A stretch of 64,000 nucleotides of DNA from a virus (Duplodnaviria; Heunggongvirae; Uroviricota; Caudoviricetes): the IMG/VR virus record IMGVR_UViG_3300006204_000424, positions 22,382 through 86,381 of that record, one strand, 5' to 3'. Below the pieces are notes generated by a model, which was not told where the DNA came from, ran no database searches, and was given only the letters and a program-made list of their open reading frames with translations. Below are positions 12,794 to 36,752 of this stretch, one piece after another. The position numbers were made by a program, and so were the translations under genes. Each line of letters opens with the position of its first letter. Positions within the stretch are counted from its first letter, which is position 1.

Positions 12794-13231
12794 TTAATTA
12801 TTTTTTAACATCATAATTGCAATCGCTTGTTTCGCAGATTCAACCGCAATATCGTGAGCTACTGTTTCAACAAAGCCAAGTGTATGATTTCCAAATTTAT
12901 TTGCTATTGCCTTTGTCTTTTCCCAAACAGATGGTTCTTTTAATGATTCAATAAAATTGTATCCTGCCATTGTAATATCTTCAATAGTACAGCGTACTAA
13001 ATATGGTGCATTTTCTGGAAACTTTGTGGAAATCTTCAAAAAACCGCATTCATCTAATTTAAGCACTGAACGCATTATTTCTTTTTTACTAAATGAACTC
13101 AAATCCGATGAAGCATACATCATGACTAAATTTACACTTTTTGTCTGCCAGTCATTCCCAAATTCTTCATAATCAATATTGTCAACACAGTATTTCATAA
13201 CACATCTTATGCAGTCTAAATTTATATCCAT
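12794..13231 (-). CDS. Hypothetical protein (moron, minus strand)
   Basis: 145-aa ORF antisense to the tail operon. No recognised domain. Confidence 0.4.
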   Translation of the reverse strand: MDINLDCIRCVMKYCVDNIDYEEFGNDWQTKSVNLVMMYASSDLSSFSKKEIMRSVLKLDECGFLKISTKFPENAPYLVRCTIEDITMAGYNFIESLKEPSVWEKTKAIANKFGNHTLGFVETVAHDIAVESAKQAIAIMMLKNN

Positions 13232-13592
13232 TGTCTACCTCCATAACGTATAGAAAGGGTTGAGTTTTTATAGAATTTACACTTCCAAATACAAAAAAAC
13301 TTTATCTTGTTGTTGAAATATCCCAGCTTTTGCATCAATATAACTGCACTTATAATGAAGCTGATTTCATATTAAACCTTATTACTGAAGAAATAAAACA
13401 ACAGCGGGAAGATTTGGAGTATGATTTCGTATTTGACGATATAAACGAAAGCATTGAGAAAGTCAAAGTATGCAATGCTGATAATCGTATTATCCAAAAA
13501 ATGAACCATTGTCCTCCATATGGTTGATTATAAATATATCTTATCTTTTTGTCAATTTATATAATCTCTAACAGAAACGAGGTGAACACTAA

Positions 13593-14699
13593 ATGGCAGT
13601 TTCCCCTATCCTGCTGAACACCCTGCCCTTTGATGCAGAAAAAGAACATACTCTACAATTCACATATACAGGGGCGCAGATTTTCGCCCACAAAATTGTA
13701 ATAAAAGATAACAGCACAAACACTGTTGTATACAACAAGAAAACCAGCGCAATGAACACGCTGGCTCGTATCCCACCAAATACTTTGACAAATGGCAATA
13801 CCTATAATATCCAAATCTCAGTATTCGACCACGAGGGTAAAGAAAGCCCTCTCAGCAATCCAGCCATTCTGAAATGCTTAAAGACCCCTACTTTTACATT
13901 CACAAATATCCATGAAGGTCTAATAGTCAGAAATTCATTCTTAGATGCAGAGTTATCTTATTCCCAAGAAAACGGCGAATTACTGAACGCTTACAGCGTC
14001 ACTCTATATGCTGTCAACCAAACCACAGTTGTCTATGACTCTGGTATACGATACTTTAGTGATAACCTTATCGTAAGAGTACCTGAGATGCTGGATGATA
14101 CCACATATTATATCCGTGCAACTGGCGAAACCGTAAACGGCATGGAGATGGATACAGGGCTGATTGAAATTGTCTGCGATTATCTGAAACCAGACATTTT
14201 CTTAAAATTCCGTGCAGACAACATTTCAGAAGAAGGCAGCGTCCGCCTTACATCGAACTTTATCCTGATTGAAGGTAAATCTGAGCCAGAGGAACTTGTC
14301 TATATTGACGATGAAAAAGTCAGCTTGCTAAACGGGGAAAAGGTATGGTTTGACGATGGATTTACGGCTGATAACTTCGTGTGTGAAATTATTGCAGAAC
14401 AAATACCTGATTTCACGAAATTTATTACATTCAACATGAAATCCGCAATGGCATATATCACATGGAACTATGGATACTTTGAAGGTTCTGAGGAAAAACA
14501 ATATTATGCTGAACTAACGGCATATCAATATGTTGGCAGCGAAAAGCTAAATTATGTTCAAATCAGTAATCGTATCCCTCCCCTTTCAGATGGCGAGCAG
14601 GTACATTTCTGGATGCGTCATATAAATGGGGCTTTCGACTTAATCATTACAAAACTCAATGGAACAAATACACTTATAGAAGGAGGCGACAGTGCATGA
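13593..14699 (+). CDS. Phage tail component (distal-tail-protein position, Ig/FN3-like repeats)
   Basis: Position downstream of the tape measure. Beta-rich repeat composition. 4-bp overlap with the next gene. Confidence 0.5.
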   Translation: MAVSPILLNTLPFDAEKEHTLQFTYTGAQIFAHKIVIKDNSTNTVVYNKKTSAMNTLARIPPNTLTNGNTYNIQISVFDHEGKESPLSNPAILKCLKTPTFTFTNIHEGLIVRNSFLDAELSYSQENGELLNAYSVTLYAVNQTTVVYDSGIRYFSDNLIVRVPEMLDDTTYYIRATGETVNGMEMDTGLIEIVCDYLKPDIFLKFRADNISEEGSVRLTSNFILIEGKSEPEELVYIDDEKVSLLNGEKVWFDDGFTADNFVCEIIAEQIPDFTKFITFNMKSAMAYITWNYGYFEGSEEKQYYAELTAYQYVGSEKLNYVQISNRIPPLSDGEQVHFWMRHINGAFDLIITKLNGTNTLIEGGDSA

Positions 14700-15595
14700 T
14701 GTTCTTAGGGGCTTTTCTTGGCTTCAAAACTTCACTTGATCCAACGCCTGTTGCCGCTGGCACGACAGAATATTTTGAGATTGAAAACGGAATCTTTGAC
14801 GAAGTATACCTTGACAGTGACATACAAAGGGAACACAGCACAGTCATTCCAGACTGGGGATATTCCACAATCCTTGACGCAAAATTCAAAGGAAATATTC
14901 TTGCTGGCAATGTAGATTTTACCCTGTCTTCTATTTCATCTATGCTGTTGAAACGCCGTAAAAAAGGAACTTATAAATGGACTACTATTCACCAAATCCC
15001 TATCAGCAGTGAAGATGATTTTGATTTTTACTTCAACGATATCAGTGTGGCATCACAAACTACATATGAATATGCCGCCGTTCCTATTATCAATGGTGTT
15101 GAGGGAACTTATCAAATTATTGGTGTCGATGTAGCATTTGACGGTGCATTTATCATTGACCCAACATATGGATATCAAATCATCCTTAACTTTAAGCGCG
15201 AAAATCTAACCCGTGGCATTCCGTCTAATGTTTTAGAGCCTGTCAATTCTTACTATCCTATTGTGAATTATTATTCCAAAAAAAGATATGACAGTGTAAC
15301 ACTTTCTGGAACATTTATCGAGCTTGACAGAAATACTTGTAATTTTGATACAATTCATAGCTGGCGTTACAGAAAGATGCTACGTGACTTTTTGAGCAAC
15401 CAGCGTTCTAAAATTGTAAAACTCTATGATGGACAGATATGGATGGCATGTGTTGTCGACCCAATCTCAGAAAGTTATAACGGACATCCAGAAAATGTAA
15501 TCACCACTATCAATATTGTTGAAATTGGCGATGTTGAAAATAACCGTGACCTCTATTATCATGGCTTTGCAAACTTTTTGGAGGTGCATATCTAA
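14696..15595 (+). CDS. Phage tail protein
   Basis: Overlapping-stop operon structure within the tail module. No specific motif recognised. Confidence 0.45.
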   Translation: MMFLGAFLGFKTSLDPTPVAAGTTEYFEIENGIFDEVYLDSDIQREHSTVIPDWGYSTILDAKFKGNILAGNVDFTLSSISSMLLKRRKKGTYKWTTIHQIPISSEDDFDFYFNDISVASQTTYEYAAVPIINGVEGTYQIIGVDVAFDGAFIIDPTYGYQIILNFKRENLTRGIPSNVLEPVNSYYPIVNYYSKKRYDSVTLSGTFIELDRNTCNFDTIHSWRYRKMLRDFLSNQRSKIVKLYDGQIWMACVVDPISESYNGHPENVITTINIVEIGDVENNRDLYYHGFANFLEVHI

Positions 15596-17139
15596 TGCCC
15601 TACTACCCTACCCAAAAAGATATACAGGCACTTGGTTTTAGCGAAAAAATAATTCTGGTAAGAATCGTACTATTAAATAATCAGCTTCAAAGCGTTTATG
15701 AATTAAAGTACGAATACATTTCTGGTGATATGACAACCGACACTGACTCTGATATACGAAACACATTCAGTATGACACTTGCAGCTTGCGATGAAAGCGT
15801 TGGAATTGCAGAGAATAAAAAATTATGGATAGATAAATTTATAAAAGTATTTATCGGCATAAAAGTGCCTTGCTGGGAAGAAACATTATGGTATGATAAA
15901 GGCATTTTTGTTATGACAGATTATTCTTATGATGCAATAAATCGTACCCTGCACATTAACTGTTCTGATTTGGTATGTGCCTTAAATGGTGATGTTGGCG
16001 GCAGCCTGGAAGGCTTGGAAACCATTATTTATGAAGCAGATAAGCATACAATTCGTTATGCCATTATTGAAACGCTCACAGACCTTACCCCTTTTCGAAA
16101 ATATTATATAGAGGATATGTCAAAACTTATCCCATTTGATTTGGAATTTGGGGCAACTGATACTGTCTGGACGATCCTGACAAAGTTACGTGATTTGTAT
16201 CCTGGCTATGAAATGTTCTTTGATACAGATGGTACATTTATCTGTTGCAAAGTTTCTACTCTGGAAAGTGACCCTGTATTGCTGGATGACAGCATCTTAC
16301 AACCACTTTATTTATCGGAAACAGATAATGGTGACTTAAAAGACATTCGGAATGTTTCAAAGGTATGGGGAAAATGCTTGGATACAGACTATTTTACAGA
16401 CACTTGCACCTATGATGCATCTTCAAATACTTATAGCGCACATTTCACAGGTATAGCAGTCAATGAAGATGGCAGTTTACCAACCAGCACAAAATTTGCA
16501 GTAAAAATACCAACAACAAATACAGATGCAGGAACAAAGCTTGCAATCTATAACAAAACCAACGCTACAGCCTCGGAAACCCTTGTGTCTACATTGCCAA
16601 TTACTGACAGCTTAGAACAGGAAATTAAAAAAGGTTTTTTCCTTTCATCACGCTCTTTCGTATTCCGTTACCGTAGAAAAAGTATGTATGTAATGGGGCA
16701 ATGGCAGATTTTTGCAGTAAATAAGCTGCGGAACACTGCTCCTACTACTGCACAACATAATGCAGATAAAGCAAAACATGGATGCGATGATATTACTTAC
16801 ACAATTATATCCGACTCCCCATTTGCAATTGAACGGATTGGAGAGCGGCTTAAGACGTTTGAGGGCGGAGAATATGACGACATACAGGCAATAGACGACT
16901 GCATTACCCGCGCAGAGTATGAAACATGGCTGGCGGCAAAAATCGGCTACACCATTACGCTGGAAATGGTATACATCCCATGGCTTCAGGGAAACGAAAA
17001 AATCCGGTTCACTCTGGCGGCAACTGGCGAAACAAAAGACTGGGTTGTTACCAGCATCAGCACATCGTTAAGCGAAGGAACTATGACCCTGACATTAACG
17101 GAGTTCATGCCATTATATAACTTTGAAGTTGTTGAATAA
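15595..17139 (+). CDS. Phage tail/baseplate protein (tail-associated-lysin-like position)
   Basis: 514 aa. ATG overlaps the upstream stop. Tail-module context. Confidence 0.45.
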   Translation: MPYYPTQKDIQALGFSEKIILVRIVLLNNQLQSVYELKYEYISGDMTTDTDSDIRNTFSMTLAACDESVGIAENKKLWIDKFIKVFIGIKVPCWEETLWYDKGIFVMTDYSYDAINRTLHINCSDLVCALNGDVGGSLEGLETIIYEADKHTIRYAIIETLTDLTPFRKYYIEDMSKLIPFDLEFGATDTVWTILTKLRDLYPGYEMFFDTDGTFICCKVSTLESDPVLLDDSILQPLYLSETDNGDLKDIRNVSKVWGKCLDTDYFTDTCTYDASSNTYSAHFTGIAVNEDGSLPTSTKFAVKIPTTNTDAGTKLAIYNKTNATASETLVSTLPITDSLEQEIKKGFFLSSRSFVFRYRRKSMYVMGQWQIFAVNKLRNTAPTTAQHNADKAKHGCDDITYTIISDSPFAIERIGERLKTFEGGEYDDIQAIDDCITRAEYETWLAAKIGYTITLEMVYIPWLQGNEKIRFTLAATGETKDWVVTSISTSLSEGTMTLTLTEFMPLYNFEVVE

Positions 17140-17157
17140 GAAAAGAGGTGAAAATAA

Positions 17158-18288
17158 ATGAGTGAAACATATCTGGATCTGACACACAGTAATTTTCCAG
17201 AGCAAATGGATAAAATGTACGGCTGGCGAGACCCCTCCGCAAGCGAAGTGCCGCTGATTGCACAATATCAGTCCCTAATCGCGTCTGGGCAGGTTGTGAC
17301 TGCTGTTGAGTACCTGAACAGCCACCCTTCCTTAATGGACGTTATCATAAACGCCGACAAGCTGCTCCGCTTACAGCATGGACTGACTGCCGTACAGCGG
17401 TATTTTTACGATAATGTTCTGGATAAGATATACCGCCTTGGAAACATGAAAGGCGATTGGAACAGTCAAATGTCATCCGAAGCAGGCGGGCAGAACCGTT
17501 TGAATAAATTTGACGTAGTACGCTATCCCGTTGACGGCGTAAAACAGTATTTCCTCGTCATCGGTGAAGAAGTCCCTGCTGGTACACTGCCTACTGACGA
17601 AACTGTATATTTGCAGCTTTCCATGAAGGGCGACAAAGGCGATGCCGGTATTGACGGTGTTGACGGCGCACCTGGGCTTGGCATGTCGCCACAAGGCGCA
17701 TGGGTAAATAACAAGCAGTATCATCAATATGACATCGTTTCCCATGATGGATATCTCTGGTATGCCACGGAAGATAATGCATTGACGGAGCCGTCCGATG
17801 ACAATGCTGTGTGGCAGCGTGTACAGATTTCCATGCAGGTTACAACCAGCACAGAAAGGCCCGTAAATTTAGATGATGGTGGTCTGTGGCTGCACATGCA
17901 GGAAGATGGCCACGTTATACTGAAAACAAAAAACGAGAATGGCGAATACCGCACTGTTTATCCAGAAATACAGGCCGCATATGTTTTAGATGCCGCTGGA
18001 GAAAATTTGCAGCGGAAAATATACCGCCATTATTTTGAACGAGATGATGTAACCTCGCACTACAAAGAAAATGACAATATTTACACAGGCGAAGCGAAGC
18101 TGATCAGCAATCCCGCTGTTACTGTTGCTAAGTCTGTAATGACGGATACTTCTGATACAGACGGAAGGTATACGGAAGAATTTACCGTTTATGATGAAAC
18201 TGGCGTTTATATTGTATACAAAACAAAACGTGTTTTTACAGAAAATGAAGATGGAAGCTATGACTGCACGCCAGAAGTGATTGTGTAA
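17158..18288 (+). CDS. Tail fibre protein with collagen-like Gly-X-Y segment
   Basis: KGDKGDAGIDGVDGAPGLG collagen-like repeat, typical of phage fibres. Confidence 0.55.
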   Translation: MSETYLDLTHSNFPEQMDKMYGWRDPSASEVPLIAQYQSLIASGQVVTAVEYLNSHPSLMDVIINADKLLRLQHGLTAVQRYFYDNVLDKIYRLGNMKGDWNSQMSSEAGGQNRLNKFDVVRYPVDGVKQYFLVIGEEVPAGTLPTDETVYLQLSMKGDKGDAGIDGVDGAPGLGMSPQGAWVNNKQYHQYDIVSHDGYLWYATEDNALTEPSDDNAVWQRVQISMQVTTSTERPVNLDDGGLWLHMQEDGHVILKTKNENGEYRTVYPEIQAAYVLDAAGENLQRKIYRHYFERDDVTSHYKENDNIYTGEAKLISNPAVTVAKSVMTDTSDTDGRYTEEFTVYDETGVYIVYKTKRVFTENEDGSYDCTPEVIV

Positions 18289-18317
18289 AGAACACAGAGA
18301 GGAGCTGAAAGAGTATA

Positions 18318-18443
18318 ATGACAATGTTAGTAGAAAGTTTGAGAAGGCTTTATTCCAAAGGCGAAATTACGCTGGAACGTTTGGAAAGCATGATTGGCAA
18401 GTCAATTACGAACGAAGATTTTAGATATATCACGAAAGAATAA
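18318..18443 (+). CDS. XkdX-like small phage protein
   Basis: 41 aa with ...KSITNEDFRYITKE C-terminus (IT..E.y..IT pattern shared with the XkdX-like ORF at 23402). AGAGGAG RBS. Confidence 0.4.
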   Translation: MTMLVESLRRLYSKGEITLERLESMIGKSITNEDFRYITKE

Positions 18444-18485
18444 TTGCCCGATTGAAAGGGTTTTTTATATGCTAAGGAGGAAAAT

Positions 18486-18527
18486 ATGACTTATATTTTA
18501 GGTAGAAAAATTACCCCCCCCCCCTAA
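18486..18527 (+). promoter_or_regulatory. Leader ORF A (MTYILGRKITPPP*) containing an 11-nt poly-C tract (18514-18524) upstream of fibre gene A
   Basis: AAGGAGG RBS, ATG, ...ATT ACC CCC CCC CCC TAA. One of three paralogous cassettes (see findings). Confidence 0.5.
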
Positions 18528-18580
18528 AACATATCTGATTACTATGAATTTGGCGGTATCTCGATTGGAGGTGCTGCGGT

Positions 18581-19372
18581 ATGAATGGTGATTTTGATTT
18601 ATATGTTTTGAATGGGAAAATAAAAGAACTGAGGAAAAGCAACGAGCGGCAGGAAAATGGACTCGGACAGATAGAAGAAAATATTTCTATGATTGGTGAA
18701 AAAATGGAAAACTTATCTGTTGACGTTGATTTGAGCAGCTTAAACAGTACGATTGGGACTGGCTCATTTGCTTCATTAGATAAAATCATTAAAGATGGAA
18801 CTTCAAGTGTCTCTGCCCTTATCTCTGCTTTGAATGGCAAAATAAGTACAGTTTCTGGAGGTGTAAGAAAGTTTACCGCCGATGGAACATTTACCGTTCC
18901 GGCGAATGTAACTAAGATTTGGATTACCGCTTGCGCAGGCGGAGGATACGGAGAACGATATAAAGGCGGCGATGGCGGAGATTGGCTGTTCCGTGAGCCA
19001 TACTCTGTAACTCCGGGGCAAAAACTTACTATTACGGTTGGAAAAGGTGGAATTAGGGTAGGAGATATAGGAGGTTCCACCGTAATTTCCCCTTTGGTAA
19101 CGCTTACTTGTCCGGGACAAAGAGGGGGTATTGGTGGAGATAGTAATGCATATGAATCGCCTTTTGGTATAAATGGAACTGATGGATATGCTGGTGGAGG
19201 TCATGGCACAACTATCAAATCAGGAGAAGGTTTTTTGGCTAATCGCTATGGCGGCGGAGGAAGTTTAGGGAGAGGAGGAGGATATAAAGGTGGGACAAAT
19301 ATTGATCCTGGATATGGTGGCGGTGGCAGCAGCGGAAATGGCAGCGATGGCGTTGTCATTATCGAATGGTAA
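18581..19372 (+). CDS. Glycine-rich tail fibre / receptor-binding candidate (fibre A)
   Basis: GGAGGTG RBS. GGGYG, GGIGGD and GGGGS repeats. Confidence 0.5.
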   Translation: MNGDFDLYVLNGKIKELRKSNERQENGLGQIEENISMIGEKMENLSVDVDLSSLNSTIGTGSFASLDKIIKDGTSSVSALISALNGKISTVSGGVRKFTADGTFTVPANVTKIWITACAGGGYGERYKGGDGGDWLFREPYSVTPGQKLTITVGKGGIRVGDIGGSTVISPLVTLTCPGQRGGIGGDSNAYESPFGINGTDGYAGGGHGTTIKSGEGFLANRYGGGGSLGRGGGYKGGTNIDPGYGGGGSSGNGSDGVVIIEW

Positions 19373-19384
19373 GGAGGTGAACGC

Positions 19385-19726
19385 ATGACGTATGCAATGA
19401 TTTTACAGAATAAAGTAATCGATGTACTGCCGAATCAGGAAACCGAACCATGGTGGCCGCCAGACCCAGCAGGGAATCCGGTTACGGCGGTGCTTTGCGA
19501 TGATACGGTCAAGAAAGGAATGGAATATGAACCAGAAACAGGTGAGTTTTCCGAATACATACCGCCAGAACCAGAACCAGAGCCAATCCCAGAACCGACA
19601 CAGCTTGACCGCATCGAAGCAGCAATCAGTCAATCAAATACATACCTTTCTCAAACTTACTCCGAAATTGAAAATAGAATTATCGACAACTACACAATGT
19701 CTTTGGTCGAAAACAATATCATCTAA
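19385..19726 (+). CDS. XkdW-like protein (paralog 1)
   Basis: PEPEPEPIPEPTQLDRIEAAISQSN motif shared with the ORFs at 23059 and 24750. Confidence 0.5.
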   Translation: MTYAMILQNKVIDVLPNQETEPWWPPDPAGNPVTAVLCDDTVKKGMEYEPETGEFSEYIPPEPEPEPIPEPTQLDRIEAAISQSNTYLSQTYSEIENRIIDNYTMSLVENNII

Positions 19727-19768
19727 AAAATCACCATTCATACAAACAACTTTAAGGAGGAAATTTGT

Positions 19769-20080
19769 ATGAATACAGTTTATGACTTTGCTCAACAGCG
19801 CAAAGCAGAAAAAGAACGATTAAAAAAATTCGATATTACATTATCCGCAGATCATTGGTCTGATACCCTCCCCTACTCTCAGACTGTACAGGTTCAAGGG
19901 GTTACTGGAACAAATATCGTTTTTATAGCCCCTGAACCTGTACAGGAAAATATTGAAGGAGTTGGTGATTGCAAAATCATAGCAACTGAACAAACTACGA
20001 ATGCAATCACCTTCACAGCATTTGACGCAAAGCCTGATATTAACATTAACTTTCATGTTTTAGTTGGGGGTGAGGGTTAA
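19769..20080 (+). CDS. Hypothetical tail-associated protein, overlaps the next gene (ATGCC/TAATG)
   Basis: AAGGAGG RBS. 103 aa. Stop overlaps the start of the 20080 gene. Confidence 0.4.
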   Translation: MNTVYDFAQQRKAEKERLKKFDITLSADHWSDTLPYSQTVQVQGVTGTNIVFIAPEPVQENIEGVGDCKIIATEQTTNAITFTAFDAKPDININFHVLVGGEG

Positions 20081-21318
20081 TGCCAATTATCAATGAAACC
20101 ATTATCAGCGGTGTAAATGCCAAAAATGCTACCGCTACCAGCAAGGATATTCTGCAAGGTAAAACTGCTGTTGCAGGAAAAGAATTGATTACAGGTTCTA
20201 TGCCAGACAAAACTGGTCAAACGGTTAATGGCACATTCTATTCTGGCACTACTGGCTATATCACAGGCAAAATTGCTCAAGAGGGACATTATGCTACGAA
20301 TAGTAAATTAAAGATACCTGTATCTAATTTAACTGCCGGGAATATTAAAAAAGGTATTAATATAGGCGGAGTTGTAGGCACTCTTGAACCTATTCCATCA
20401 AATTTGTCTTTGTTTGCCGAATATTTTTCTCCTGCTAATAACGATTCTGAAATTGTAAATTTTAGTAATGGCAGTTTAGCCATACCCAATACATATTCGG
20501 ATCGTGGCGGTGTATGTTTAGTCAATGGCATCACTACAACTGTTAAATCTTTGGTAAATGGCTCTAACGTTAGACAGTTAGTAGGCGGAGGAACTAAAGC
20601 TATGATCAGAGGGAACTATGGAGCTTTTATATCTACTGACTCTGGTTCTATCTGGAAATCCCCCGTTGGCGTTAATATAACTTCTAGTACAAGTGCGGCA
20701 TTTATAAGGTTCAATGGCTCTAAATTTTATGTATGTATAGGTCTGAATTACACAACCCCACACTATGTTTCAAATACTGCCTGTACTTCTTTTTCTGTTG
20801 TTTCTATTCCATCAAATGATTATGAAGTTGGAAGTAGCACTGATGGTATTTGGTATGCTTATAATCATTCACTGGGCGGCATTTATTCCTCCAGTGATTT
20901 AATAAATTGGACAAAAAAATATACTCTCACAAGCAATGTAACAAATTTTATTAGTCTTTACAAACTAGGTTCTATTGTGTGTGCAACTTTTAATGGGCGC
21001 AGTCGTTCAGGTAGCAATAATACTTCTGCCACATATATCTCTTATGATAACGGACTGACATTTAGTGATAGTTTAAGTATCGGTATATCCTCGTCATATA
21101 CTCATCATAACCATATATTTACCCATAAAAATAATATATTTGTATATAGTTTTCATTCTTCTAAATTACCTCAGACAGTCTACAAAGTTGCCAATGGCAC
21201 AAAAACCATTATTAACTTACCAACAGTAAACTCAAAATACCCGAACATTATAGGTTCTAATGGAACATCATTAATTTTAGCTTATAATAATGGCGTTATT
21301 AGAACAATGTCAGTATAA
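20080..21318 (+). CDS. Receptor-binding protein candidate with BNR/Asp-box (sialidase-like) repeats
   Basis: Asp-box-like S-x-D-x-G-x-(T/S)-W/F motifs (STDSGSIWK, SYDNGLTFS) in the C-terminal half. Confidence 0.5.
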   Translation: MPIINETIISGVNAKNATATSKDILQGKTAVAGKELITGSMPDKTGQTVNGTFYSGTTGYITGKIAQEGHYATNSKLKIPVSNLTAGNIKKGINIGGVVGTLEPIPSNLSLFAEYFSPANNDSEIVNFSNGSLAIPNTYSDRGGVCLVNGITTTVKSLVNGSNVRQLVGGGTKAMIRGNYGAFISTDSGSIWKSPVGVNITSSTSAAFIRFNGSKFYVCIGLNYTTPHYVSNTACTSFSVVSIPSNDYEVGSSTDGIWYAYNHSLGGIYSSSDLINWTKKYTLTSNVTNFISLYKLGSIVCATFNGRSRSGSNNTSATYISYDNGLTFSDSLSIGISSSYTHHNHIFTHKNNIFVYSFHSSKLPQTVYKVANGTKTIINLPTVNSKYPNIIGSNGTSLILAYNNGVIRTMSV

Positions 21319-21403
21319 GATACTGATACTATTTTCTTTATAGTAGTATTTTACTTATACAATAATACGATAAAATCATACAAAACAGTGAGGTGAACAA
21401 CAA

Positions 21404-21976
21404 ATGGATTTATCTGAATTTATTATCAGCAAAATAGAAAATATCACCCCCACAGCTATTATTTTCTGCTGTATTCTTCTGTTCCTTATCATTAATTGGG
21501 TCATTTCAAAAAAAGATTTCTTCATTGATACATGGAACAAATTTTATGAACATCGCAAACGCAGGGAAGAATTTTTTCAAATGCTGATTGATGATCATAA
21601 ACGAATAAAAGAGTATGAAGAAAATCGTATCCATGACAGGGAGCAGTCTTTTCAGATTCAAAAACAGCTGATTGATGCCAATGCAAATCTGGCAGAAAAA
21701 CTTGAATCAATGTCCCAGAAAATTGACGCAAATCAAAAACTTACCGATGAGAGATTTGCCGCATCTGAGGAAAGCAGCAAACAGCGTATACGTGCCGAAT
21801 TGAAAGACAAGCTTCTCAGGGCATACAGACAGCATCATGCCGCCGCACACATTTCTTCTATGGAATTAGAGGCAATGTCAGAACTGATTGAAGTATACTC
21901 TCAAAATGGCGGCAATAGTTTTGTACATGAAATCATTGTTCCCGAAATGTATACTTGGGAAGTTGTAGATGAATAA
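21404..21976 (+). CDS. Membrane-anchored coiled-coil protein
   Basis: N-terminal TM segment AIIFCCILLFLIINWVI, then charged coiled-coil. Confidence 0.4.
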   Translation: MDLSEFIISKIENITPTAIIFCCILLFLIINWVISKKDFFIDTWNKFYEHRKRREEFFQMLIDDHKRIKEYEENRIHDREQSFQIQKQLIDANANLAEKLESMSQKIDANQKLTDERFAASEESSKQRIRAELKDKLLRAYRQHHAAAHISSMELEAMSELIEVYSQNGGNSFVHEIIVPEMYTWEVVDE

Positions 21977-21990
21977 TCCGAGGTGGTAAA

Positions 21991-22332
21991 ATGGCTGCCA
22001 AAAATAAAACTGCCCATGCCACAAAAAAGGCTGCAAAACAAAAAGTACAGACATCAAAACTCATAGTATACTCAAGCCTTGCCCTGTCGTGGGCTTTTAT
22101 TATTTTTATTTGCTATGAGATGCACAGGCTATGTGATTTAAGTCCTGTTGCTGTCATAGGAACATCAATTGTAGGAATGATTGCGGCTACAAATGCGGCT
22201 TATATGTGGAGGGCAAAGCAGGAGGATTATTTAAGGCTTGAGTTAGAAAAAATAAAACGGCTCTCTGAAATGAAGAAAAAATATGGAGATGATTTCATTT
22301 CAGAGGAATTACACGAGGTAAATATGAACTAA
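21991..22332 (+). CDS. Small two-TM membrane protein with Lys-rich N-terminus
   Basis: AKNKTAHATKKAAKQK followed by two hydrophobic helices. Confidence 0.4.
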   Translation: MAAKNKTAHATKKAAKQKVQTSKLIVYSSLALSWAFIIFICYEMHRLCDLSPVAVIGTSIVGMIAATNAAYMWRAKQEDYLRLELEKIKRLSEMKKKYGDDFISEELHEVNMN

Positions 22333-22348
22333 ATGAAAGGAGCATTTC

Positions 22349-22399
22349 ATGGAATATTTGTTAAATAAAACTACCCCCCCCCCCGAAAATTTGAACTAA
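22349..22399 (+). promoter_or_regulatory. Leader ORF B (MEYLLNKTTPPPENLN*) containing an 11-nt poly-C tract (22374-22384) upstream of fibre gene B
   Basis: AAAGGAG RBS plus ATG. Poly-C encodes PPP. Paralogous to leaders A and C. Confidence 0.5.
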
Positions 22400-22457
22400 A
22401 TCAATGCGTACTTCAGACGATTTATTGTGGATATTTTCGAAAGAAGGTGTCCGCATA

Positions 22458-23057
22458 ATGATGGATTGGAATTATTTAATTTTAGGCAGAATCAAGAAAA
22501 TTTTAAACTCCATTTCTTCTATACAGAATCTGCTGTCTTCTACACAGAAGCTGATTGGTACAACAACAGACATAGGCGGGAGCCAGACGGCAGGGACGGT
22601 GTTTGGTAAGGAAAATGCGATACTGGAAACGTTGAAAGAACAGAATGCAAAAATCTTTACAAGTATGGTATGGAAGCAGACTGCAAAAAAGGCCGTGACA
22701 ACCGCTATGAGCGGAGTGAAAATATTGAGTTTTTCTTTTGAAAGTCCGGTTAAATTCAGAGCAATAAACATTGAAGGTACTATAGATTTAGGACAATTTG
22801 CTTCGGCGTATTTTATTAACGGAGAAAGCTCATTCACAGCGTTAGCGTCTATTGCCAGTTCTACTGCTAGATATATGATAGCCGTTGACGGTGGTTCCCG
22901 TAACCGCTTTTTACTTAAAACAAGTTTTGGAGAACGCGAAAATATTTTACAGGACATTTGGATAACACAGATAGATATTCATTTCCCTGCTGTTGCTGCG
23001 GATAAAGTTTCAACATACAATGGCTACGTAGAATATCAGGAAGGGCAGGCGGGATAA
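22458..23057 (+). CDS. Short tail fibre / receptor-binding candidate (fibre B)
   Basis: N-terminus MMDWNYLILGRIKKILNS is paralogous to fibre C (MISDWNTVILSKVKNILGK). Conserved upstream TTCGAAAGAAGGTGT element. Start moved from the track ATG 22404 to 22458 by this homology. Confidence 0.5.
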   Translation: MMDWNYLILGRIKKILNSISSIQNLLSSTQKLIGTTTDIGGSQTAGTVFGKENAILETLKEQNAKIFTSMVWKQTAKKAVTTAMSGVKILSFSFESPVKFRAINIEGTIDLGQFASAYFINGESSFTALASIASSTARYMIAVDGGSRNRFLLKTSFGERENILQDIWITQIDIHFPAVAADKVSTYNGYVEYQEGQAG

Positions 23058-23058
23058 A

Positions 23059-23370
23059 ATGCTGTTATATTTGGATGAAAACCGGAAAATCATTGATAAC
23101 AACTATGTAATCAGCCATGCCAGCGCATTAAAGATAATGGCAGAAAATCCCCTTGCGGAATGGCACGATATTGATTTTTCCTTTGCAATGGGCGAAAACA
23201 GGGCTGGATATGATAAAGTCTTTTATCTGGAAACGGATGGGATGATTCGGATTGAGTATGAGGAAATACCACCCGAACCAGCCCCGCCCCTTTCCGAACA
23301 GGAGCAGATTGCCATTGACACGGCGTTGAATGTGGAATACATTGCCTGCCTGATGGAGGCAAATTTATAA
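23059..23370 (+). CDS. XkdW-like protein (paralog 2)
   Basis: About 100 aa. EEIPPEPAPPLSEQEQIAIDTALN motif. Located between the fibre and the XkdX-like ORF as in PBSX-type late regions. Confidence 0.55.
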   Translation: MLLYLDENRKIIDNNYVISHASALKIMAENPLAEWHDIDFSFAMGENRAGYDKVFYLETDGMIRIEYEEIPPEPAPPLSEQEQIAIDTALNVEYIACLMEANL

Positions 23371-23401
23371 CGACTTTGAAATAATATGAGGAGGAATTTT
23401 C

Positions 23402-23542
23402 ATGATTTACACACTGCTGAAAAACAAAATCACACGGGGTACATACGACAGGGAGGATTTGAAAAACAAGATGGACACATACCTGCTGTTCGGACGCATC
23501 ACGGAGGAACAGTATACGGAACTGACGGGGCTGATGGCATGA
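23402..23542 (+). CDS. XkdX-like small phage protein
   Basis: 46 aa MIYTLLKNKITRGTYDREDLKNKMDTYLLFGRITEEQYTELTGLMA. GAGGAGG RBS. Sits immediately before the holin. Confidence 0.5.
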   Translation: MIYTLLKNKITRGTYDREDLKNKMDTYLLFGRITEEQYTELTGLMA

Positions 23543-23614
23543 TTACGATACATGAAAAGTGTTAATATTTCAACATAATCAGGAGTTTAACTGAAATATA
23601 TAAGGAGGAAAATT

Positions 23615-23980
23615 ATGACAGATATTACGATAATTTTAGAAACAATTATTAAGTTGGCTTGTTTGGTGTTTTTGCTTTTTGTAATCCCCTGTTTGAAAAC
23701 CGCTGGGGCAAATAACAAACTGCTGGCGGCATTAAAGGTCTCTGATGAAATTGCAAAAATTGCAGGTATTGTTGTACGTTCTGCAAACGAACTTGAAATC
23801 ACAGGAGACCTTCTAAAACTTGGAATTACAAAGGCTGATTATGCTATGGAACAGGTCAAAAAAGAACTTGAAAGCAGAGGAATTACTTTTAATGAAGATT
23901 TGATTGTAAAATATATCAAAGCCGCCGTGACAGAACTGCGGGTTGAAATTGCGAATACCCCCGCTGAAAAGGAAAACTAA
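23615..23980 (+). CDS. Phage holin
   Basis: 121 aa with N-terminal TM helix LACLVFLLFVIPCL and a charged C-terminal tail. Upstream of the endolysin. Confidence 0.6.
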   Translation: MTDITIILETIIKLACLVFLLFVIPCLKTAGANNKLLAALKVSDEIAKIAGIVVRSANELEITGDLLKLGITKADYAMEQVKKELESRGITFNEDLIVKYIKAAVTELRVEIANTPAEKEN

Positions 23981-24048
23981 ATAACTTTATTTGAGCAGGG
24001 TAAACCACCCTGCTCTATTCATTTCATACAAAAATGAGGAGGAATTCT

Positions 24049-24096
24049 ATGTATTTATTTGTTAGTAAAATCACCCCCCCCCCCCCGAAAATTTAA
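24049..24096 (+). promoter_or_regulatory. Leader ORF C (MYLFVSKITPPPPKI*) containing a 13-nt poly-C tract (24074-24086) upstream of fibre gene C
   Basis: GAGGAGG RBS plus ATG. Paralogous to leader B. Confidence 0.5.
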
Positions 24097-24156
24097 CCTA
24101 AAAACAAGACTTATTCCAGCCAGATTTTGTAAGTATTTTCGAAAGAAGGTGTTTGC

Positions 24157-24726
24157 ATGATTTCGGATTGGAATACAGTTATTTTGAGTAAGGTAAAAAA
24201 TATATTAGGTAAGATTACAGAACAAAGCAATAAAATAGATGCTGCCAGTTCTATTGCAGAAAATATCCATACAAAGATTGATACGTTGGATGAAAATATA
24301 AATGGAATTAAAACTACATCTGATTCTATCAGTTCAAGCGTGTCAAGTCTTGGTACAATCAATTCAAACGTTTCCTCTGTGAAAAATACCGTTTCAAGCA
24401 TGTCTTCTACGCTGTCTACGGTAAATACTAATGTGAAGAATTTAATGAATAGCGGGAATAGTGTGGTAAAGAGTGTACAGAGGGGAATCGTTAGTAGCAG
24501 TAGAACAATAACTATTTCGACTGTTAATTTATCTAAAAGTATTATTATTACATCTGGCGACGGCCCCGCTGCTTTTTTTGTTAGTAGTAATAGTAGTCTT
24601 TATGGCTCATATGGTCTGGGACGATTCGAAAGCAGTACCCAAATATTTATTAATGTTGCACGTGGAAGTTATGGGGGAAGTTCGTATAGTGCTCAAGTAG
24701 CCTGGCAAGTTATTGAATTTTATTGA
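24157..24726 (+). CDS. Short tail fibre / receptor-binding candidate (fibre C), located between holin and endolysin
   Basis: N-terminal paralogy to fibre B. Ser/Thr/Asn-rich repeats. Confidence 0.5.
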   Translation: MISDWNTVILSKVKNILGKITEQSNKIDAASSIAENIHTKIDTLDENINGIKTTSDSISSSVSSLGTINSNVSSVKNTVSSMSSTLSTVNTNVKNLMNSGNSVVKSVQRGIVSSSRTITISTVNLSKSIIITSGDGPAAFFVSSNSSLYGSYGLGRFESSTQIFINVARGSYGGSSYSAQVAWQVIEFY

Positions 24727-24749
24727 TAAATGGAAATGGAGGTGAATTT

Positions 24750-25052
24750 ATGTCTTTTATTTATGCACAAATTGATGAAAATAATATCTGCTGCGCTGTT
24801 TCTAATCTTTCTGGTGAAATATTCGATACACATTTAATCCCTATTCAAACATTCGACACAACCATGATTGGGAAGAAATTTTCAGATGGTCACTGGCTGG
24901 AAGTGCCAAAATCAGAAATGGGAGAAACCATAGCTCCTGAACCCACACAGCTTGACCGCATTGAAGCTGCCATAAATATGAAAAATAATGAAATTTCAGA
25001 AAGGGCAATTGATACATACACAAAGCAACTGTTGGAAAACGGTTTACTTTAA
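24750..25052 (+). CDS. XkdW-like protein (paralog 3)
   Basis: ETIAPEPTQLDRIEAAINMKNNE motif, nearly identical to the one at 19385. GGAGGTG RBS at ATG 24750. Confidence 0.5.
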   Translation: MSFIYAQIDENNICCAVSNLSGEIFDTHLIPIQTFDTTMIGKKFSDGHWLEVPKSEMGETIAPEPTQLDRIEAAINMKNNEISERAIDTYTKQLLENGLL

Positions 25053-25110
25053 CCTTATACTTCCCTGCCCTTCATCGGGTAGGGATTTTTTTACGAAATG
25101 AGGTGACAAA

Positions 25111-25743
25111 TTGTCAAAGAAAATGACAGGCAAAGAATTAGTGGCATTTGCAAGGTCTAAAATTGGAACACCTTATGTTTATGGTGCAAAGGGTGAGGTT
25201 TTAACAAAAGAAAAATATGACTGGCTGAAAAAACAATATGGTTCCTTGGTTTGGGACAGCGATAAGAAAAAAATCGGAAAGGTTTGTGTGGACTGCTCAG
25301 GACTGCTCTCTTGGGCTTGTGGTGTTGTTTTAGGCTCTAGTCAGTGGAATAGTCATGCTGATGTGAAAAAGCCGATACAAAGCATCTCAGAGGCTCCTAT
25401 GGGGGCTTTGGTCTGGTGTAAAGGACACATTGGCGTTTACAGTGGTTTGAAGAATGGAGTCCCTTGCTATATCGCAGCAGATGGATCAGCATATGGTGTG
25501 CGGGAAGTGCCATTGAGCCAGAATAAGTTCACACATTGGCTGCTTGTCCATGATTTTTTCGAGTATGAGGAGGACGAAATGGTAGAAAGAGATATGATTG
25601 TTGTAAATGATACAGAATATAGTGTTGATATGATTCGGAAAGATGGGACTACGTTTATTAAAACCAGGGATATTGCTGATATTCTAGGAATGAAGGTATC
25701 GAGTAATGGGAGGATTCCTGTGTTGGAGAGTGGGAAGAAGTGA
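25111..25743 (+). CDS. NlpC/P60 (CHAP-like) cell-wall peptidase, endolysin
   Basis: Catalytic Cys context CVDCSGL and His context KGHIGVYSG. End of the lysis cassette. Confidence 0.65.
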   Translation: MSKKMTGKELVAFARSKIGTPYVYGAKGEVLTKEKYDWLKKQYGSLVWDSDKKKIGKVCVDCSGLLSWACGVVLGSSQWNSHADVKKPIQSISEAPMGALVWCKGHIGVYSGLKNGVPCYIAADGSAYGVREVPLSQNKFTHWLLVHDFFEYEEDEMVERDMIVVNDTEYSVDMIRKDGTTFIKTRDIADILGMKVSSNGRIPVLESGKK

Positions 25744-26131
25744 AGTTATGGCATTTGAAATATCAGATTTAGAATTTATAAGTGGAATGGGATTATACTT
25801 AGATAAATTGCAATCTTTACCTGATGAAATTGCAAAAAAAGAAGCATTGTATGCTTTGATCCGCACTGGTGTATTGGATAAGGATGGCAAGGCAAAAAGT
25901 TGTATTGTTTCTTTAGTGTGAAGTTTCTTTAGTGTGAAAATAGATGTGCTAAAAATAGATAGGAGCAATATAGTATATACTCCACATAATATAACTGTAA
26001 AAACTTTAACATCATGCCTCTTGCCTTTTTTCTCTAATGGCATTATAATAAATCTGCATAGAATGACAAATTTCGCTTTTCTTATATAGTATACTGTTAT
26101 TGCTTAAACAAAAAATAAGAGAGGTTATTTT

Positions 26132-26350
26132 ATGCGTCCAAAAAAGAAGTTATCCAAGATGAAAGGGGATGTTTATATGCGGACTATAACTGATTCTCAT
26201 ATGAATGATTTGAAAAAACGCGCATCTCAAAGACGCATCCTTTTCCCCAATCAAAAAAACTCAGAAGATGTAAAACTAGAAAATGATTTTTTTGAAGATG
26301 TAAAGAATAAAATGTATGAACAAATTTCGGAGGATGAAAAATGGAATTGA
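26132..26350 (+). CDS. Putative antitoxin partner of the MazF-like toxin
   Basis: 72-aa ORF overlapping the toxin start by 10 nt. Basic N-terminus. Confidence 0.4.
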   Translation: MRPKKKLSKMKGDVYMRTITDSHMNDLKKRASQRRILFPNQKNSEDVKLENDFFEDVKNKMYEQISEDEKWN

Positions 26351-26760
26351 AACGTGGGGAAATATATTATATAACTTTTCCATATACCCTTGATCCAAAG
26401 TATCCTAATGGTAAACCTAAATTTGTATTGGTATTACAAGAGGGCGAATACTTTGCAAAATATAACACGGTTGAAATAATGCTTATTACTTCTGATAAGC
26501 AATATAAGCCTAGAGAAAAATATGCTACTGATGTAGAAATAGAAGTGGGGACAACAAAACTTAAAGATAAATCATGGGTTCTTTGTTCACAACCTTATCC
26601 AATTGAAAAGAAGTTATTTGAGCAATCTGGCGTATGGTGTGCGGGGATGTTATCTGCCGAAAAAATGGATGAAATCGATGAAGCTACTTATATTGGATTA
26701 TGTATGGGGTTACAGCATGAACTTGCACTTGAACCAGCAGATGAAGATTCTGATAATTGA
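26341..26760 (+). CDS. MazF/PemK-family mRNA interferase toxin
   Basis: RGEIYYITFPY...GKPKFVLVLQEG...VEIMLITSDKQ...KSWVLCSQPYPIEKK matches the MazF/PemK fold motif order. Confidence 0.65.
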   Translation: MELKRGEIYYITFPYTLDPKYPNGKPKFVLVLQEGEYFAKYNTVEIMLITSDKQYKPREKYATDVEIEVGTTKLKDKSWVLCSQPYPIEKKLFEQSGVWCAGMLSAEKMDEIDEATYIGLCMGLQHELALEPADEDSDN

Positions 26761-26804
26761 ATAGTTATTTTCTGGCACTATTATCGATTATAATTAAAAA
26801 TTTT

Positions 26805-26834
26805 AGGGATGCTTTTGAGCGTCCCTATTTTTTT
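26805..26834 (+). terminator. Rho-independent terminator after the MazEF-like pair
   Basis: AGGGATGC ttttga GCGTCCCT followed by ATTTTTTT. Confidence 0.55.
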
Positions 26835-27171
26835 GACTTTACGTGTCACCAAAAAAATGGACAGTGAGCCTTCATGGCTGGCTCAGGTCTATGGCGAACC
26901 GGAGATTATGTACGAAAGACATCTGCCGGAATAAGCAGGTGAAACCAGGCAGCGGTCTTGACACATTTATTTACAGCTGATATATATAACGAGGGCGAAA
27001 AGCTGATTCTCAAGCCTTTCGCCCAATCGTATCATAGAATATCTTTATTTACAGACTTTTGCTCACAGATTCCTGTTTTTGGTTACGCCATATTTGAAAA
27101 CAAATGGGCGTTTAAAACATGCAAAACTCGCCTCCTCCCAATATCAGGTCATCCTTGTTTCTGCCAGTAAT

Positions 27172-28170: not shown

Positions 28171-28194
28171 GATTCATTTCCCCTTTCTTTTTAA

Positions 28195-29667: not shown

Positions 29668-29682
29668 ATATATGATGAATCC

Positions 29683-29712: not shown

Positions 29713-29746
29713 AGATTGATTTTCATACAACTCATATTTATCATTA

Positions 29747-36664: not shown

Positions 36665-36752
36665 ACAAATTCGCTCCTCTCTCCTGCCGAAAAGAGCCTT
36701 AATGTGATAAAACATATTTTACCACATCAAGGCTGCAATTACAAATTCCTCG

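Follow-up and report, generated by a model that had tools for sequence, protein, structure and literature searches.

The window analysed here (64,000 nt of DNA) appears to hold three tail-fibre or receptor-binding cassettes of a temperate phage, each placed behind the same putative leader switch. The reading that we consider likely, on computational evidence alone, is that of a slipped-strand contingency tract within a leader ORF, on whose length the translational coupling to alternative receptor-binding proteins depends. Coordinates are those of the window, and all features named lie on the + strand.

Three paralogous modules (A, B and C) were found, each with a Shine-Dalgarno (SD) sequence, an ATG, a leader, a C tract (11, 11 and 13 C) and a cassette gene. 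All three have kept the leader SD, its ATG and the reading frame that leads into the tract. One frame of each module reaches the downstream start, and the remaining two stop 0-12 nt after the tract. The leaders measure 13-17 aa in the short form versus 34-36 aa in the long form. Relative to the downstream start, the long frame ends at -8 nt (A), +2 nt (B, as TAATG) and -1 nt (C, as ATGA). Coupling through a sequestered SD calls for an upstream ORF that ends at or beside the downstream start, and in all three modules one frame only satisfies this. No tract length joins leader and fibre ORF in frame in any of the three modules, and homopolymers ≥8 are absent from the window's fibre ORFs. As assembled, modules A, B and C are all in the short, presumably OFF, frame.

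C runs of 11 or more occurred three times in the window and were absent from 100 dinucleotide-preserving shuffles (mean 0.00). The composite pattern SD-ATG-20..27 nt-A-C10 was also found three times, with 0 expected. All three tracts have the length (~8 or more) that is asked of a G/C homopolymer in a simple-sequence-repeat contingency locus. The anatomy and the frame logic of the modules are shown by these readings.

The leader SD of module A, AAGGAGG (18474-18480), was read directly from the sequence, and the pattern is present in all three modules. After a 5 nt gap, the leader ORF (18486-18527) runs ATG ACT TAT ATT TTA GGT AGA AAA ATT ACC CCC CCC CCC TAA, that is, 13 codons behind a strong SD, with the TAA stop at 18525-18527. 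This assembled form, MTYILGRKITPPP followed by the stop, is the short, presumably OFF, frame. The poly-C tract (11 C) lies at 18514-18524, and 7, 10 or 13 C give the long frame. With 10 C, the leader becomes MTYILGRKITPPPKTYLITMNLAVSRLEVLRYEW and ends at TGA 18589-18591; with 12 C, it ends at TGA 18536-18538. The long-frame stop lies 8 nt beyond the first base of the fibre ATG (18581), and the two ORFs overlap by 11 nt. The MTYILGRKITPPPKTYLITMNLAVSRLEVLRYEW peptide (34 aa) is encoded by natural 10-C contigs, and gene callers annotate the 34-aa ORF.

The first-pass annotation of this locus had described an RBS-ATG leader with 11 C coding for PPP and a stop at 18525, a read-through to TGA 18589-18591 with 10 C and a stop at 18536 with 12 C. 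All of this held, and the natural 10-C contigs encode the leader that it predicted. Its claim that the long-frame stop overlaps the fibre ATG held only in part, in that the stop is just inside the fibre ORF and not on the ATG. Its figure of ~30% GC for the genome was corrected to 34.4% for the whole window and ~41% around module A.

The leader ORF of module B (22349-22399; SD at 22335-22342) is assembled as MEYLLNKTTPPPENLN and contains 11 C at 22374-22384. The leader ORF of module C (24049-24096; SD at 24036-24042) is assembled as MYLFVSKITPPPPKI and contains 13 C at 24074-24086. Both have the long frame with 9 or 12 C. In B, this frame ends with TAA 22456-22458, which overlaps the ATG at 22458 in an exact TAATG (22456-22460); in C, it ends with TGA 24158-24160, which overlaps the ATG at 24157 in an exact ATGA (24157-24160). 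A terminator-like hairpin (23993-24015) lies between the holin gene and module C.

PHROG and Pfam matches, a structure model and BFVD fold matches identify gene A (18581-19372; 263 aa) as a tail-fibre or baseplate distal protein, with a helical stalk at the N-terminus and then a Gly_rich_2 beta domain. The structure model was only partly confident (mean pLDDT 61), and its BFVD matches were tail-fibre, baseplate and glycine-rich phage proteins with low TM-scores. They support the prediction of a phage fibre or baseplate protein at that level only. Gene B (22458-23057; 199 aa) is a baseplate receptor-binding module, and gene C (24157-24726; 189 aa) has the N-terminal motif M..DWN..IL.K.K in common with it. 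The N-terminal and SD alignment of the two places the true start of gene B at 22458 and not at the SD-less ATG 22404. A BppU_N fusion of 363 aa shares 96% identity with gene B over 84% of its length, and this 363-aa architecture adjoins Dit/Tal genes in siphophage contigs. A PDB sequence search with genes A and B gave no useful matches.

Genes A and C are each followed on the 3' side by a small gene, of 113 aa (19385-19726) and 109 aa (24723-25052), respectively; the two are homologues with 40% identity. The one after gene A is a candidate fibre accessory protein or chaperone, a function that is inferred. In a relative (L130), the gene-B homologue lies directly 3' of the fibre gene and the leader is absent; the module is therefore an added regulatory layer.

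The start of each cassette gene is masked by a predicted hairpin. The SD sits in the 3' arm in modules A, B and C, and the 5' arm is translated by the long frame only. The module A hairpin over the fibre-A translation start (18533-18598) has an MFE of -35.3 kcal/mol (z = -2.9); in its inner stem, 18553-18562 pairs with 18568-18577, and the SD GGAGGTG is at 18567-18573. Module B has a 13-bp hairpin (22426-22455; 5' arm 22426-22438, loop GAAA, 3' arm 22443-22455), which is predicted to sequester the SD GAAGGTG at 22443-22449. The 13-bp hairpin of module C (24128-24157; 5' arm 24128-24140, loop GAAA, 3' arm 24145-24157) is predicted to sequester the SD along with the A of the AUG. The predicted SD pairing probability was 0.82 in module A and 1.00 in module B.

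Conservation and covariation of the hairpin are shown by sequence comparison. The 13-bp helix of B and C was 100% paired in five distinct sequences, versus 35-68% in slid controls. Four of the 13 pairs vary and all remain paired, i.e. the changes are compensatory. The A, B and C hairpins contain SD and AUG and are without a U-tract, and a terminator scan found none between tract and gene start in the modules. Sequestered-SD coupling further asks that a conserved structure inside the upstream ORF pair with the downstream SD. The predicted structures satisfy this; dependence of downstream on upstream translation is inferred. The SDs of the downstream genes are decent in themselves, and many G-U pairs go into the predicted hairpins; the OFF state is therefore possibly leaky.

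The tracts were the only indels among near-identical metagenome contigs, with an overall range of 8-14 C. Tract A had 8-13 C in 14 contigs, tract B 9-13 C and tract C 9-14 C. One contig (L001) showed 0 substitutions in 12,792 nt, and its sole difference was 2 C at tract C. Two others had 1 substitution in 10,850 nt (L003) and 0 in 10,021 nt (L007), with indels confined to tracts A and B. Within one strain from different samples (L005, L006 and L008), tract A had 12, 10 and 9 C and tract B had 13 and 9 C. All three frame classes occur, and natural long-frame states were found for every module: 8 of 14 contigs in A, 1 of 12 in B and 1 of 8 in C. The rare long frames in B and C would fit accessory fibres that are seldom ON and would fit the opposite polarity just as well. 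The metagenome scan added one new contig only (L396), which has a diverged module C with the frame open and the helix intact. Assemblies can break, as in L383 and L384.

Tract lengths were taken from short-read assemblies, in which long G/C homopolymers are error-prone, and there were no read-level or population data. Within short-read assemblies, the polymorphism of repeat number that is expected of a contingency locus is shown. The first-pass annotation had called the C tract a slipped-strand hotspot and had named a uniform tract length in populations, together with no effect on downstream expression, as grounds for refutation. Hypervariability was observed, the tract being the sole indel among otherwise identical contigs and varying from 8 to 13 C; slippage as its mechanism is inferred.

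In the mechanism that we propose, each module begins with a strong SD and ATG, followed by 8-9 sense codons, the poly-C tract, stops in two frames 0-12 nt after it, a spacer of ~60-70 nt open in the third frame only and the predicted hairpin burying the SD and partly the AUG. Slipped-strand mispairing in DNA replication would lengthen or shorten the C tract. For two of the three length classes, translation of the leader would end just 3' of the tract, the hairpin would stay closed and the fibre gene would be poorly translated (OFF). In the third class (7, 10 or 13 C in A; 9 or 12 C in B and C), the ribosome would cross the 5' anti-SD arm, melt the hairpin and end on the fibre start codon or a few nt past it. 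ON translation may then proceed via reinitiation, via new initiation on the SD now laid bare, or via both. With three such modules switching independently, a population would come to contain mixed fibre repertoires, meaning a bet-hedging of host range. The replicative and heritable change in length, the equation of the long frame with ON and the effect on host range are inferred, and there are no expression data.

The earlier claim that tract length gates the delivery of ribosomes to the fibre start is supported by the frame logic, the hairpin and the recurrence of the design, and its effect on expression is inferred. Beyond the mere overlap of stop and start, coupling is likely to act by unmasking the sequestered SD, with or without reinitiation, as inferred from sequence alone. 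The long frame of module A stops 8 nt within the fibre ORF, off the start codon. The three classes could become less distinct through slippage of RNA polymerase or through a +1 slip of ribosomes on CCC-C.

Recurrence of the module in unrelated phages and its association with tail fibres are shown. In an unrelated gut phage of 45% GC (L137-L140, L143), three Gly_rich_2 genes are each preceded by the same module, there with G8-9; each has an ATGA overlap, and the G tract varies in length. Most of the modules, of which there were at least about 40 distinct ones, came from pattern scans blind to gene function; they often formed tandem arrays. Among the 25 most frequent PHROGs of the downstream proteins, all functionally named ones were tail fibre, tail collar or tail protein, and unrelated poly-G modules almost always precede tail-fibre or collar genes. 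The mean SD pairing probability was 0.69 for module genes versus 0.46-0.51 for control genes of the same loci (P about 3e-6 to 3e-7). The median distance 3' of the tract was 12 nt for OFF-frame stops and 30 nt for the start of the anti-SD arm. A frame ended at the gene start in 29 of 32 deduplicated cases versus 16.5 expected from shuffled spacers, a null that is already high for this arrangement (16.5/32).

The use of poly-G in analogous modules speaks against any function peculiar to polyproline or poly(C), and from this use (Gly) the polyproline coding pointed out in the first-pass annotation is inferred to be incidental. The Gly_rich_2 fibre genes of other contigs (L142, L144) have tracts inside the ORF. 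An apparent conserved 'TA' beside the tracts exists because the stop codon is placed directly after the tract. A first motif scan with C9-KAAAAYWT was too generic and mainly returned in-ORF N-terminal tracts (e.g. lipoprotein signal peptides) and opposite-strand poly-G leaders. The 3' leader motif TTTTCGAAAGAAGGTG had no relatives in IMG/VR. At gathering thresholds, no Rfam families were found in the window, and tRNA genes were absent. In GenBank phages, neither DNA nor protein matches were found to the fibre region of the window, to the fibre A protein or to one module array from another phage (L206), and a second array (L160) had only three matches, of 40-70 nt. Among the GenBank phages searched, the module class could not be linked to any studied phage.

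Other explanations were weighed against the DNA switch. The tract might make RNA polymerase slip or ribosomes shift on CCC-C and so act as a non-heritable rheostat, in which each template length would give a fixed small long-frame fraction and a low stoichiometry of accessory fibres, with DNA variation as a side effect. The tracts of 9-14 nt are at least as long as the RNA:DNA hybrid, which favours transcriptional slippage (established knowledge; reviewed in PMC5009743). CCC-C is a +1 frameshift-prone context, and the phage keeps all three window modules though they are assembled in short frames. However, DNA length differs among otherwise identical genomes, all three frame classes are natural, and the post-tract stops in the two other frames suit a three-state DNA switch equally. 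We regard the rheostat as unlikely, and it and the DNA switch are not mutually exclusive. It is similarly doubtful that the polarity is reversed, with ribosomes in the long leader frame occluding the SD/AUG and the short frames expressing the gene. The short frame in 11 of 12 B contigs, in 7 of 8 C contigs and in all three window modules speaks for such a reversal, as does the 11 nt by which the module A long frame overlaps the fibre ORF. Against it stand the position of the SD, inside a conserved and covarying hairpin that is out of reach of short-frame ribosomes, and module A, which has the long frame in 8 of 14 contigs. Moreover, positive coupling has its standard signature in ATGA and TAATG overlaps.

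A sequencing or assembly artefact, with a tract that in truth has one fixed length and a leader that is merely a spacer or an ordinary constitutive uORF, is very unlikely. Illumina and PCR errors do climb steeply in G/C homopolymers ≥10 nt, and some contigs were broken or chimeric at the tract. Yet a consensus normally gives the modal length, and 8-14 C were found across independent samples and three assemblers. The conserved three-frame design also recurs with G in unrelated phages, which is hard to explain unless length matters. Just as improbable is a signal independent of frame, be it a promoter-spacer homopolymer, Rho-loading poly(C), an EF-P-dependent polyproline stall sensor or an sRNA target. 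Rho has an ideal substrate in poly(C), PPP is known as a stall motif, and Bordetella fim and Neisseria opc/porA are promoter-spacer homopolymer switches. Homopolymers in mRNA leaders can also tune sRNA pairing (PMC8295292), as H. pylori RepG does with G-repeats. What such signals leave unexplained is that SD, ATG and frame into the tract are kept in all three modules and that the stop-codon layout is frame-specific; the analogous poly-G is neither a rut site nor a run of proline codons. No sigma-70-like hexamer pair spans the tracts, and promoter-like matches were at chance level, but non-canonical phage late promoters could not be scanned. Polyproline/EF-P and Rho-rut were rejected as a general mechanism in view of the poly-G (GGG = Gly) analogues with the same layout, and an invertible segment or DGR was rejected in the absence of inverted repeats in 13000-28000.

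The contingency leader resembles the leader-peptide phase variation of Streptococcus gallolyticus pil1 (Danne et al. 2014, PMC3894217). There too, the translated leader ORF contains a hypermutable repeat whose copy number determines how long the leader is, and only long leaders let ribosomes disrupt an inhibitory stem-loop, which switches on a surface-structure gene. The difference is in the parts: pil1 has a pentanucleotide GCAGA repeat and an intrinsic transcription terminator (attenuation), whereas the phage modules have a homopolymer and an SD/AUG stem-loop and would be translational. The phage leader differs further from pil1 in that its long form stops on the start codon and in that three copies of the switch stand before alternative fibre genes. 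The phage modules are inferred to work like the pil1 family without belonging to it, the intrinsic terminator that would define a member being missing.

Receptor-binding protein genes of Fletchervirus (Campylobacter phage) contain polyG tracts (Sorensen et al. 2021, Cell Rep 35:109214; PMC10877375), and here as well a phage-encoded G/C homopolymer is thought to create subpopulations with different receptor-binding proteins. The Fletchervirus tract is inside the coding sequence and truncates the protein by frameshift, whereas the window modules leave the protein sequence untouched and would gate translation alone. Bet-hedging via slippage-prone simple repeats has also been described for the contingency loci of phages T2 and T4 (Gomez, Barrick and Waters 2025, bioRxiv 10.1101/2025.10.21.683753). 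Those repeats are short (6 nt or more), mainly A/T runs inside ORFs and reportedly under-represented in tail-fibre genes, and that study has no leader-ORF or coupling design, unlike the window modules.

Coupling via a sequestered ribosome-binding site is known from the MS2 coat/replicase and lysis genes and from erm-type translational attenuation. These have in common with the modules a downstream SD hairpin opened by a ribosome in the upstream frame and an overlap of stop and start. In those systems, the upstream frame does not vary, or a drug-stalled ribosome gates it, whereas in the window modules a mutable homopolymer would decide whether the ribosome arrives. The Mu G segment, the P1 C segment and the DGR of Bordetella phage BPP-1 likewise diversify receptor specificity within a phage population, by way of alternative tail-fibre variants. 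They use site-specific inversion or mutagenic retrohoming, whereas neither an invertase nor a reverse transcriptase was seen here and 13000-28000 is free of inverted repeats.

A bolder reading, towards which we lean only slightly, is that of a widespread class of contingency leaders: a hypermutable G/C homopolymer in a short uORF gates a hairpin-masked start, almost entirely in fibre or receptor-binding cassettes and often in tandem. No published description of such a leader switch was found in the literature searched. If the reading is true, gut and other uncultured phages would hold combinatorial host-range switches, heritable but reversible, without any change to the fibre proteins themselves. 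For many uncultured phages, host range would then be a stochastic reversible state and not a fixed property of the genome, and this state would be set by a few homopolymer lengths, which are routinely collapsed or mis-called by assemblers. This would affect host prediction from metagenomes, the reading of microdiversity within samples and, for therapeutic or engineered phages, both design and stability. Leader-peptide phase variation would be extended to viruses and to translational control; the sole bacterial example in the literature searched, pil1, is transcriptional. The module of ~150 nt (uORF, tract and anti-SD hairpin) is self-contained and portable, and a protein factor would be unneeded. 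In this compact form, it could be tested with reporters and is a potential synthetic stochastic switch. Scans of GTDB representative genomes for the host found nothing, and the sole host hint was an integrase-cluster member named Anaerotignum sp. MAG.

The module A leader was confirmed by re-reading the sequence. It spans 18474–18527 and reads AAGGAGG, five nucleotides, then ATG ACT TAT ATT TTA GGT AGA AAA ATT ACC CCC CCC CCC TAA. The first-pass annotation had placed 11 C at 18514–18524 within this leader ORF and had claimed that with one C fewer the frame reads on to a TGA at 18589–18591, and that with one C more it stops at 18536. All three claims held. The read-on frame comprises 34 codons, and the predicted 34-aa peptide was found verbatim in natural 10-C contigs and was also annotated by gene callers. 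Gene A (263 aa) starts at ATG 18581 and has its own Shine-Dalgarno sequence (SD), GGAGGTG. The claimed GC content of roughly 30% failed, as the window has 34% GC. C runs of ≥11 nt occurred in none of 100 dinucleotide-preserving window shuffles vs. three in the real window. Overall, the observation was confirmed and its interpretation supported, and the single tract was extended to a three-module system and then to a broad class.

Only three G/C homopolymers of ≥8 nt are present in the 64 kb, at 18514 (11 C), 22374 (11 C) and 24074 (13 C). They belong to modules A, B and C, upstream of genes A, B (199 aa) and C (189 aa). The order of parts is common to all three: SD and ATG, 22 or 25 nt, the C tract, (T/G)AAAA, a spacer, and the SD and ATG of the gene. 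The tract is entered in the same codon phase (A-CC) each time. Modules B and C share the motif TATTTTCGAAAGAAGGTG directly 5' of the gene start; the start of gene B was therefore set at 22458, and the ATG at 22404, which lacks an SD, was discarded as its start. The frames also follow one logic: two short frames stop soon after the tract, and one long frame reaches the gene start. In module A, the short-frame stops lie 0 and 11 nt past the tract, and the long frame is open at 7, 10 or 13 C and stops 8 nt inside the gene. In modules B and C, the short-frame stops lie 7 and 12 nt past the tract, and the long frame is open at 9 or 12 C and ends in a TAATG overlap (B) or an ATGA overlap (C). The window assembly is in a short frame in all three modules.

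Contigs encoding identical fibre proteins were collected from independent metagenomes, and tract length varied among them, with every length figure coming from short-read assemblies. Contig L001 showed no substitution in 12,792 nt, the sole difference from the window being 2 C at tract C. L003 had one substitution in 10,850 nt and length differences only at tracts A and B, and L007 had none in 10,021 nt and differed only at these two tracts. A single strain in three samples had 12, 10 and 9 C at tract A, and 13 and 9 C at tract B. Counting unique contigs, the tract A lengths were 11, 11, 10, 10, 10, 12, 10, 13, 9, 10, 10, 10, 11 and 8 (long frame in 8 of 14). Tract B measured 11, 11, 10, 10, 10, 13, 9, 10, 10, 10 and 13, plus an A-to-C variant (long frame in 1 of 12), and tract C 13, 11, 10, 10, 14, 11, 11 and 9 (long frame in 1 of 8). 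Some contigs end or turn chimeric exactly at tract C, and such assembly breaks may conceal modules of this kind in metagenomes. L383 carries 19 C at 229–247 followed by unrelated sequence, and L384 begins immediately past tract C.

All three modules have a hairpin with its 5' arm in the spacer and the gene SD within its 3' arm. In module A, 18553–18562 pairs with 18568–18577 within a larger stem (18533–18598, z = −2.9). Modules B and C form a 13-bp stem with a GAAA loop. This helix was 100% paired across five distinct sequences, including the diverged C module of L396, vs. only 35–68% in slid-register controls. Sequence differences affect four of the 13 pairs without breaking standard pairing: two change from G-C to A-U, one occurs as A-U, G-U or G-C, and one changes from U-G to C-G. 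In L396, several substitutions fall within the first ~40 nt of the spacer, yet the long frame is open and the ATGA overlap is kept. Short-frame stops lie 19–37 nt 5' of the arm pairing with the SD (anti-SD arm). A scan of modules A, B and C for terminators and sigma-70-like promoters found none spanning the tracts.

In the mechanism we propose, the tract is a slipped-strand contingency element whose length would pick one of three frames of the translated leader. In the two short frames, translation would terminate early and the fibre start would stay masked. In the long frame, the ribosome would translate the anti-SD arm and reach the start codon, unmasking the start and coupling translation. 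Three independent switches would then give mixed fibre repertoires within a phage population. The data directly show the anatomy, the frame logic, the tract-length polymorphism in nature, the conserved and covarying hairpin, the recurrence in unrelated phages and the link to tail-fibre genes. That the slippage is replicative and heritable, that the long frame is ON and that host range is affected are inferences, and there are no expression data. The main rival is a pure rheostat, in which transcriptional or ribosomal slippage on CCC-C sets the output. Slippage of both types probably does render the states of the proposed switch leaky. The contingency switch, as a three-module system and as a wider class, is directly testable.

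The same device recurs beyond this phage, in unrelated ones. One of them, a human-gut phage with 45% GC, was found only via weak protein similarity of its Gly_rich_2 genes and has the same parts before each of three fibre genes: SD, ATG and 7 codons, a G8–9 tract, a ~70-nt spacer, an anti-SD/SD hairpin and an ATGA overlap. The tract of its middle module has 9 G in one contig and 8 G in three, and a relative has one module only. As Gly-coding poly-G serves in the same layout, proline coding and poly(C) RNA are incidental, and tract length is what counts. IMG/VR was also searched by two pattern scans blind to gene function (GGAGG-N4-10-ATG-N12-30 followed by G9 or C9), whose counts are lower bounds. 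Sense poly-G gave at least 55 in-ORF tracts, 38 uORF-coupled modules and 26 other or truncated cases; sense poly-C gave at least 60, 12 (mostly two families) and 38, respectively. About 40 distinct modules were gathered, many as tandem arrays of two or three. Proteins 3' of them match Collar (6), Gly_rich_2 (6), Gp10_C, Laminin_G_3 and Big_3, and all functionally named families among their 25 most frequent PHROGs are tail fibre, tail collar or tail protein. SD pairing was 0.69 in the gathered modules vs. 0.46–0.51 in control genes of the same loci (P 3e-6 to 3e-7). A frame ending at the gene start was present in 29 of 32 deduplicated cases vs. 16.5 expected from shuffled spacers.

Among loci L145–L378, sense poly-G leader modules outnumber poly-C ones ~3 to 1 (38 vs. 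12), and within ORFs the two tract types are equally frequent. The excess could reflect Gly vs. Pro codons, pairing of G tracts with C/U-rich anti-SD segments or a strand bias of slippage. Tandem arrays at L151:1343–2745, L206:5210–7125 and L160:4136–5734 hold short genes for fibre tips, two or three per array, and every gene has its own poly-G leader module; array genes of L206 and L217 encode a phage tail Collar domain. Such arrays might be multi-cassette host-range switchboards, which they resemble. In other phages, a G10 (L142:6125–6134) or G9 (L144:2475–2483) tract lies within the Gly_rich_2 fibre ORF itself, so this family has in-ORF tracts in some phages and leader-ORF tracts in others.

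Mechanistically, the nearest precedent is pil1 of S. gallolyticus (PMC3894217), whose transcription terminator is under the control of a GCAGA repeat within a leader peptide. Modules A, B and C have no terminator and are therefore a functional analogue of pil1, not a member of its type. MS2 and erm are classical examples of translational coupling via a sequestered SD. Contingency loci have been described in phages before, as in-ORF tracts in RBP genes of Fletchervirus (Sorensen et al. 2021, Cell Rep 35:109214) and in T2/T4 (Gomez, Barrick and Waters 2025, bioRxiv 10.1101/2025.10.21.683753). The full-text literature searched, subscription-only papers being outside its scope, contained no account of phage fibre genes coupled to a leader ORF that a homopolymer gates. 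A phrase check of a 2025 phase-variation review found 'leader peptide', 'translational coupling' and 'attenuation' absent.

The modules sit at the tail-fibre and lysis end of a large temperate phage genome. Genes 5' of them match tail and tail-fibre families of PHROG. A holin is encoded at 23615–23980 and an integrase at 35477–36715, and past the latter follows a replication module (DnaE-like polymerase, RecD2, NrdD, ligase). Gene A encodes an N-terminal helical stalk and a Gly_rich_2 domain, and its predicted structure resembles phage tail-fibre, baseplate and glycine-rich proteins. An N-terminal motif is common to genes A, B and C, and the small genes directly after A and C are homologous to each other. 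Over 84% of its length, gene B is 96% identical to a BppU_N fusion protein of 363 aa. The 103-aa protein after it (23059–23370) has an exact copy in siphophage contigs (L386, L387, L394), directly following a BppU_N gene of 363 aa, with Dit and Tal genes alongside, in a baseplate operon. Gene B is therefore read as a baseplate receptor-binding module moving between phages, and these data make a recent horizontal exchange between very different phages likely. In L130, a relative with 55% identity, the gene B homologue directly follows the fibre gene without a leader, so the leader is an added regulatory layer.

Several features of the neighbourhood were also recorded. Terminator-like hairpins at 23993–24015 and 25062–25085 flank cassette C (leader, 189-aa gene and 109-aa gene), which has the holin gene on one side and a 210-aa gene on the other and resembles an inserted moron. 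The 210-aa gene has a weak, sub-threshold NlpC/P60 match (E 0.006). A PemK/MazF-like toxin gene (26341–26760) lies just 3' of the lysis cassette and is kept in related contigs. Between the lysis genes and the integrase, 27172–30762 encodes an ornithine cyclodeaminase, a Na+/solute symporter and a GntR regulator. This resembles a metabolic cargo island, and it was found in several metagenome contigs. In L130, the integrase follows the lysis genes at a distance of ~1.5 kb, and this gap holds just two small ORFs, both on the minus strand. An AAA_15/AAA_21 (AbiEii-like) ATPase gene at the left window end (693–2339) is possibly a phage-carried defence gene. The ATP-dependent DNA ligase gene (47606–49372, minus strand) is split by a Hint/intein splicing domain, i.e. 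it encodes an intein-containing phage ligase.
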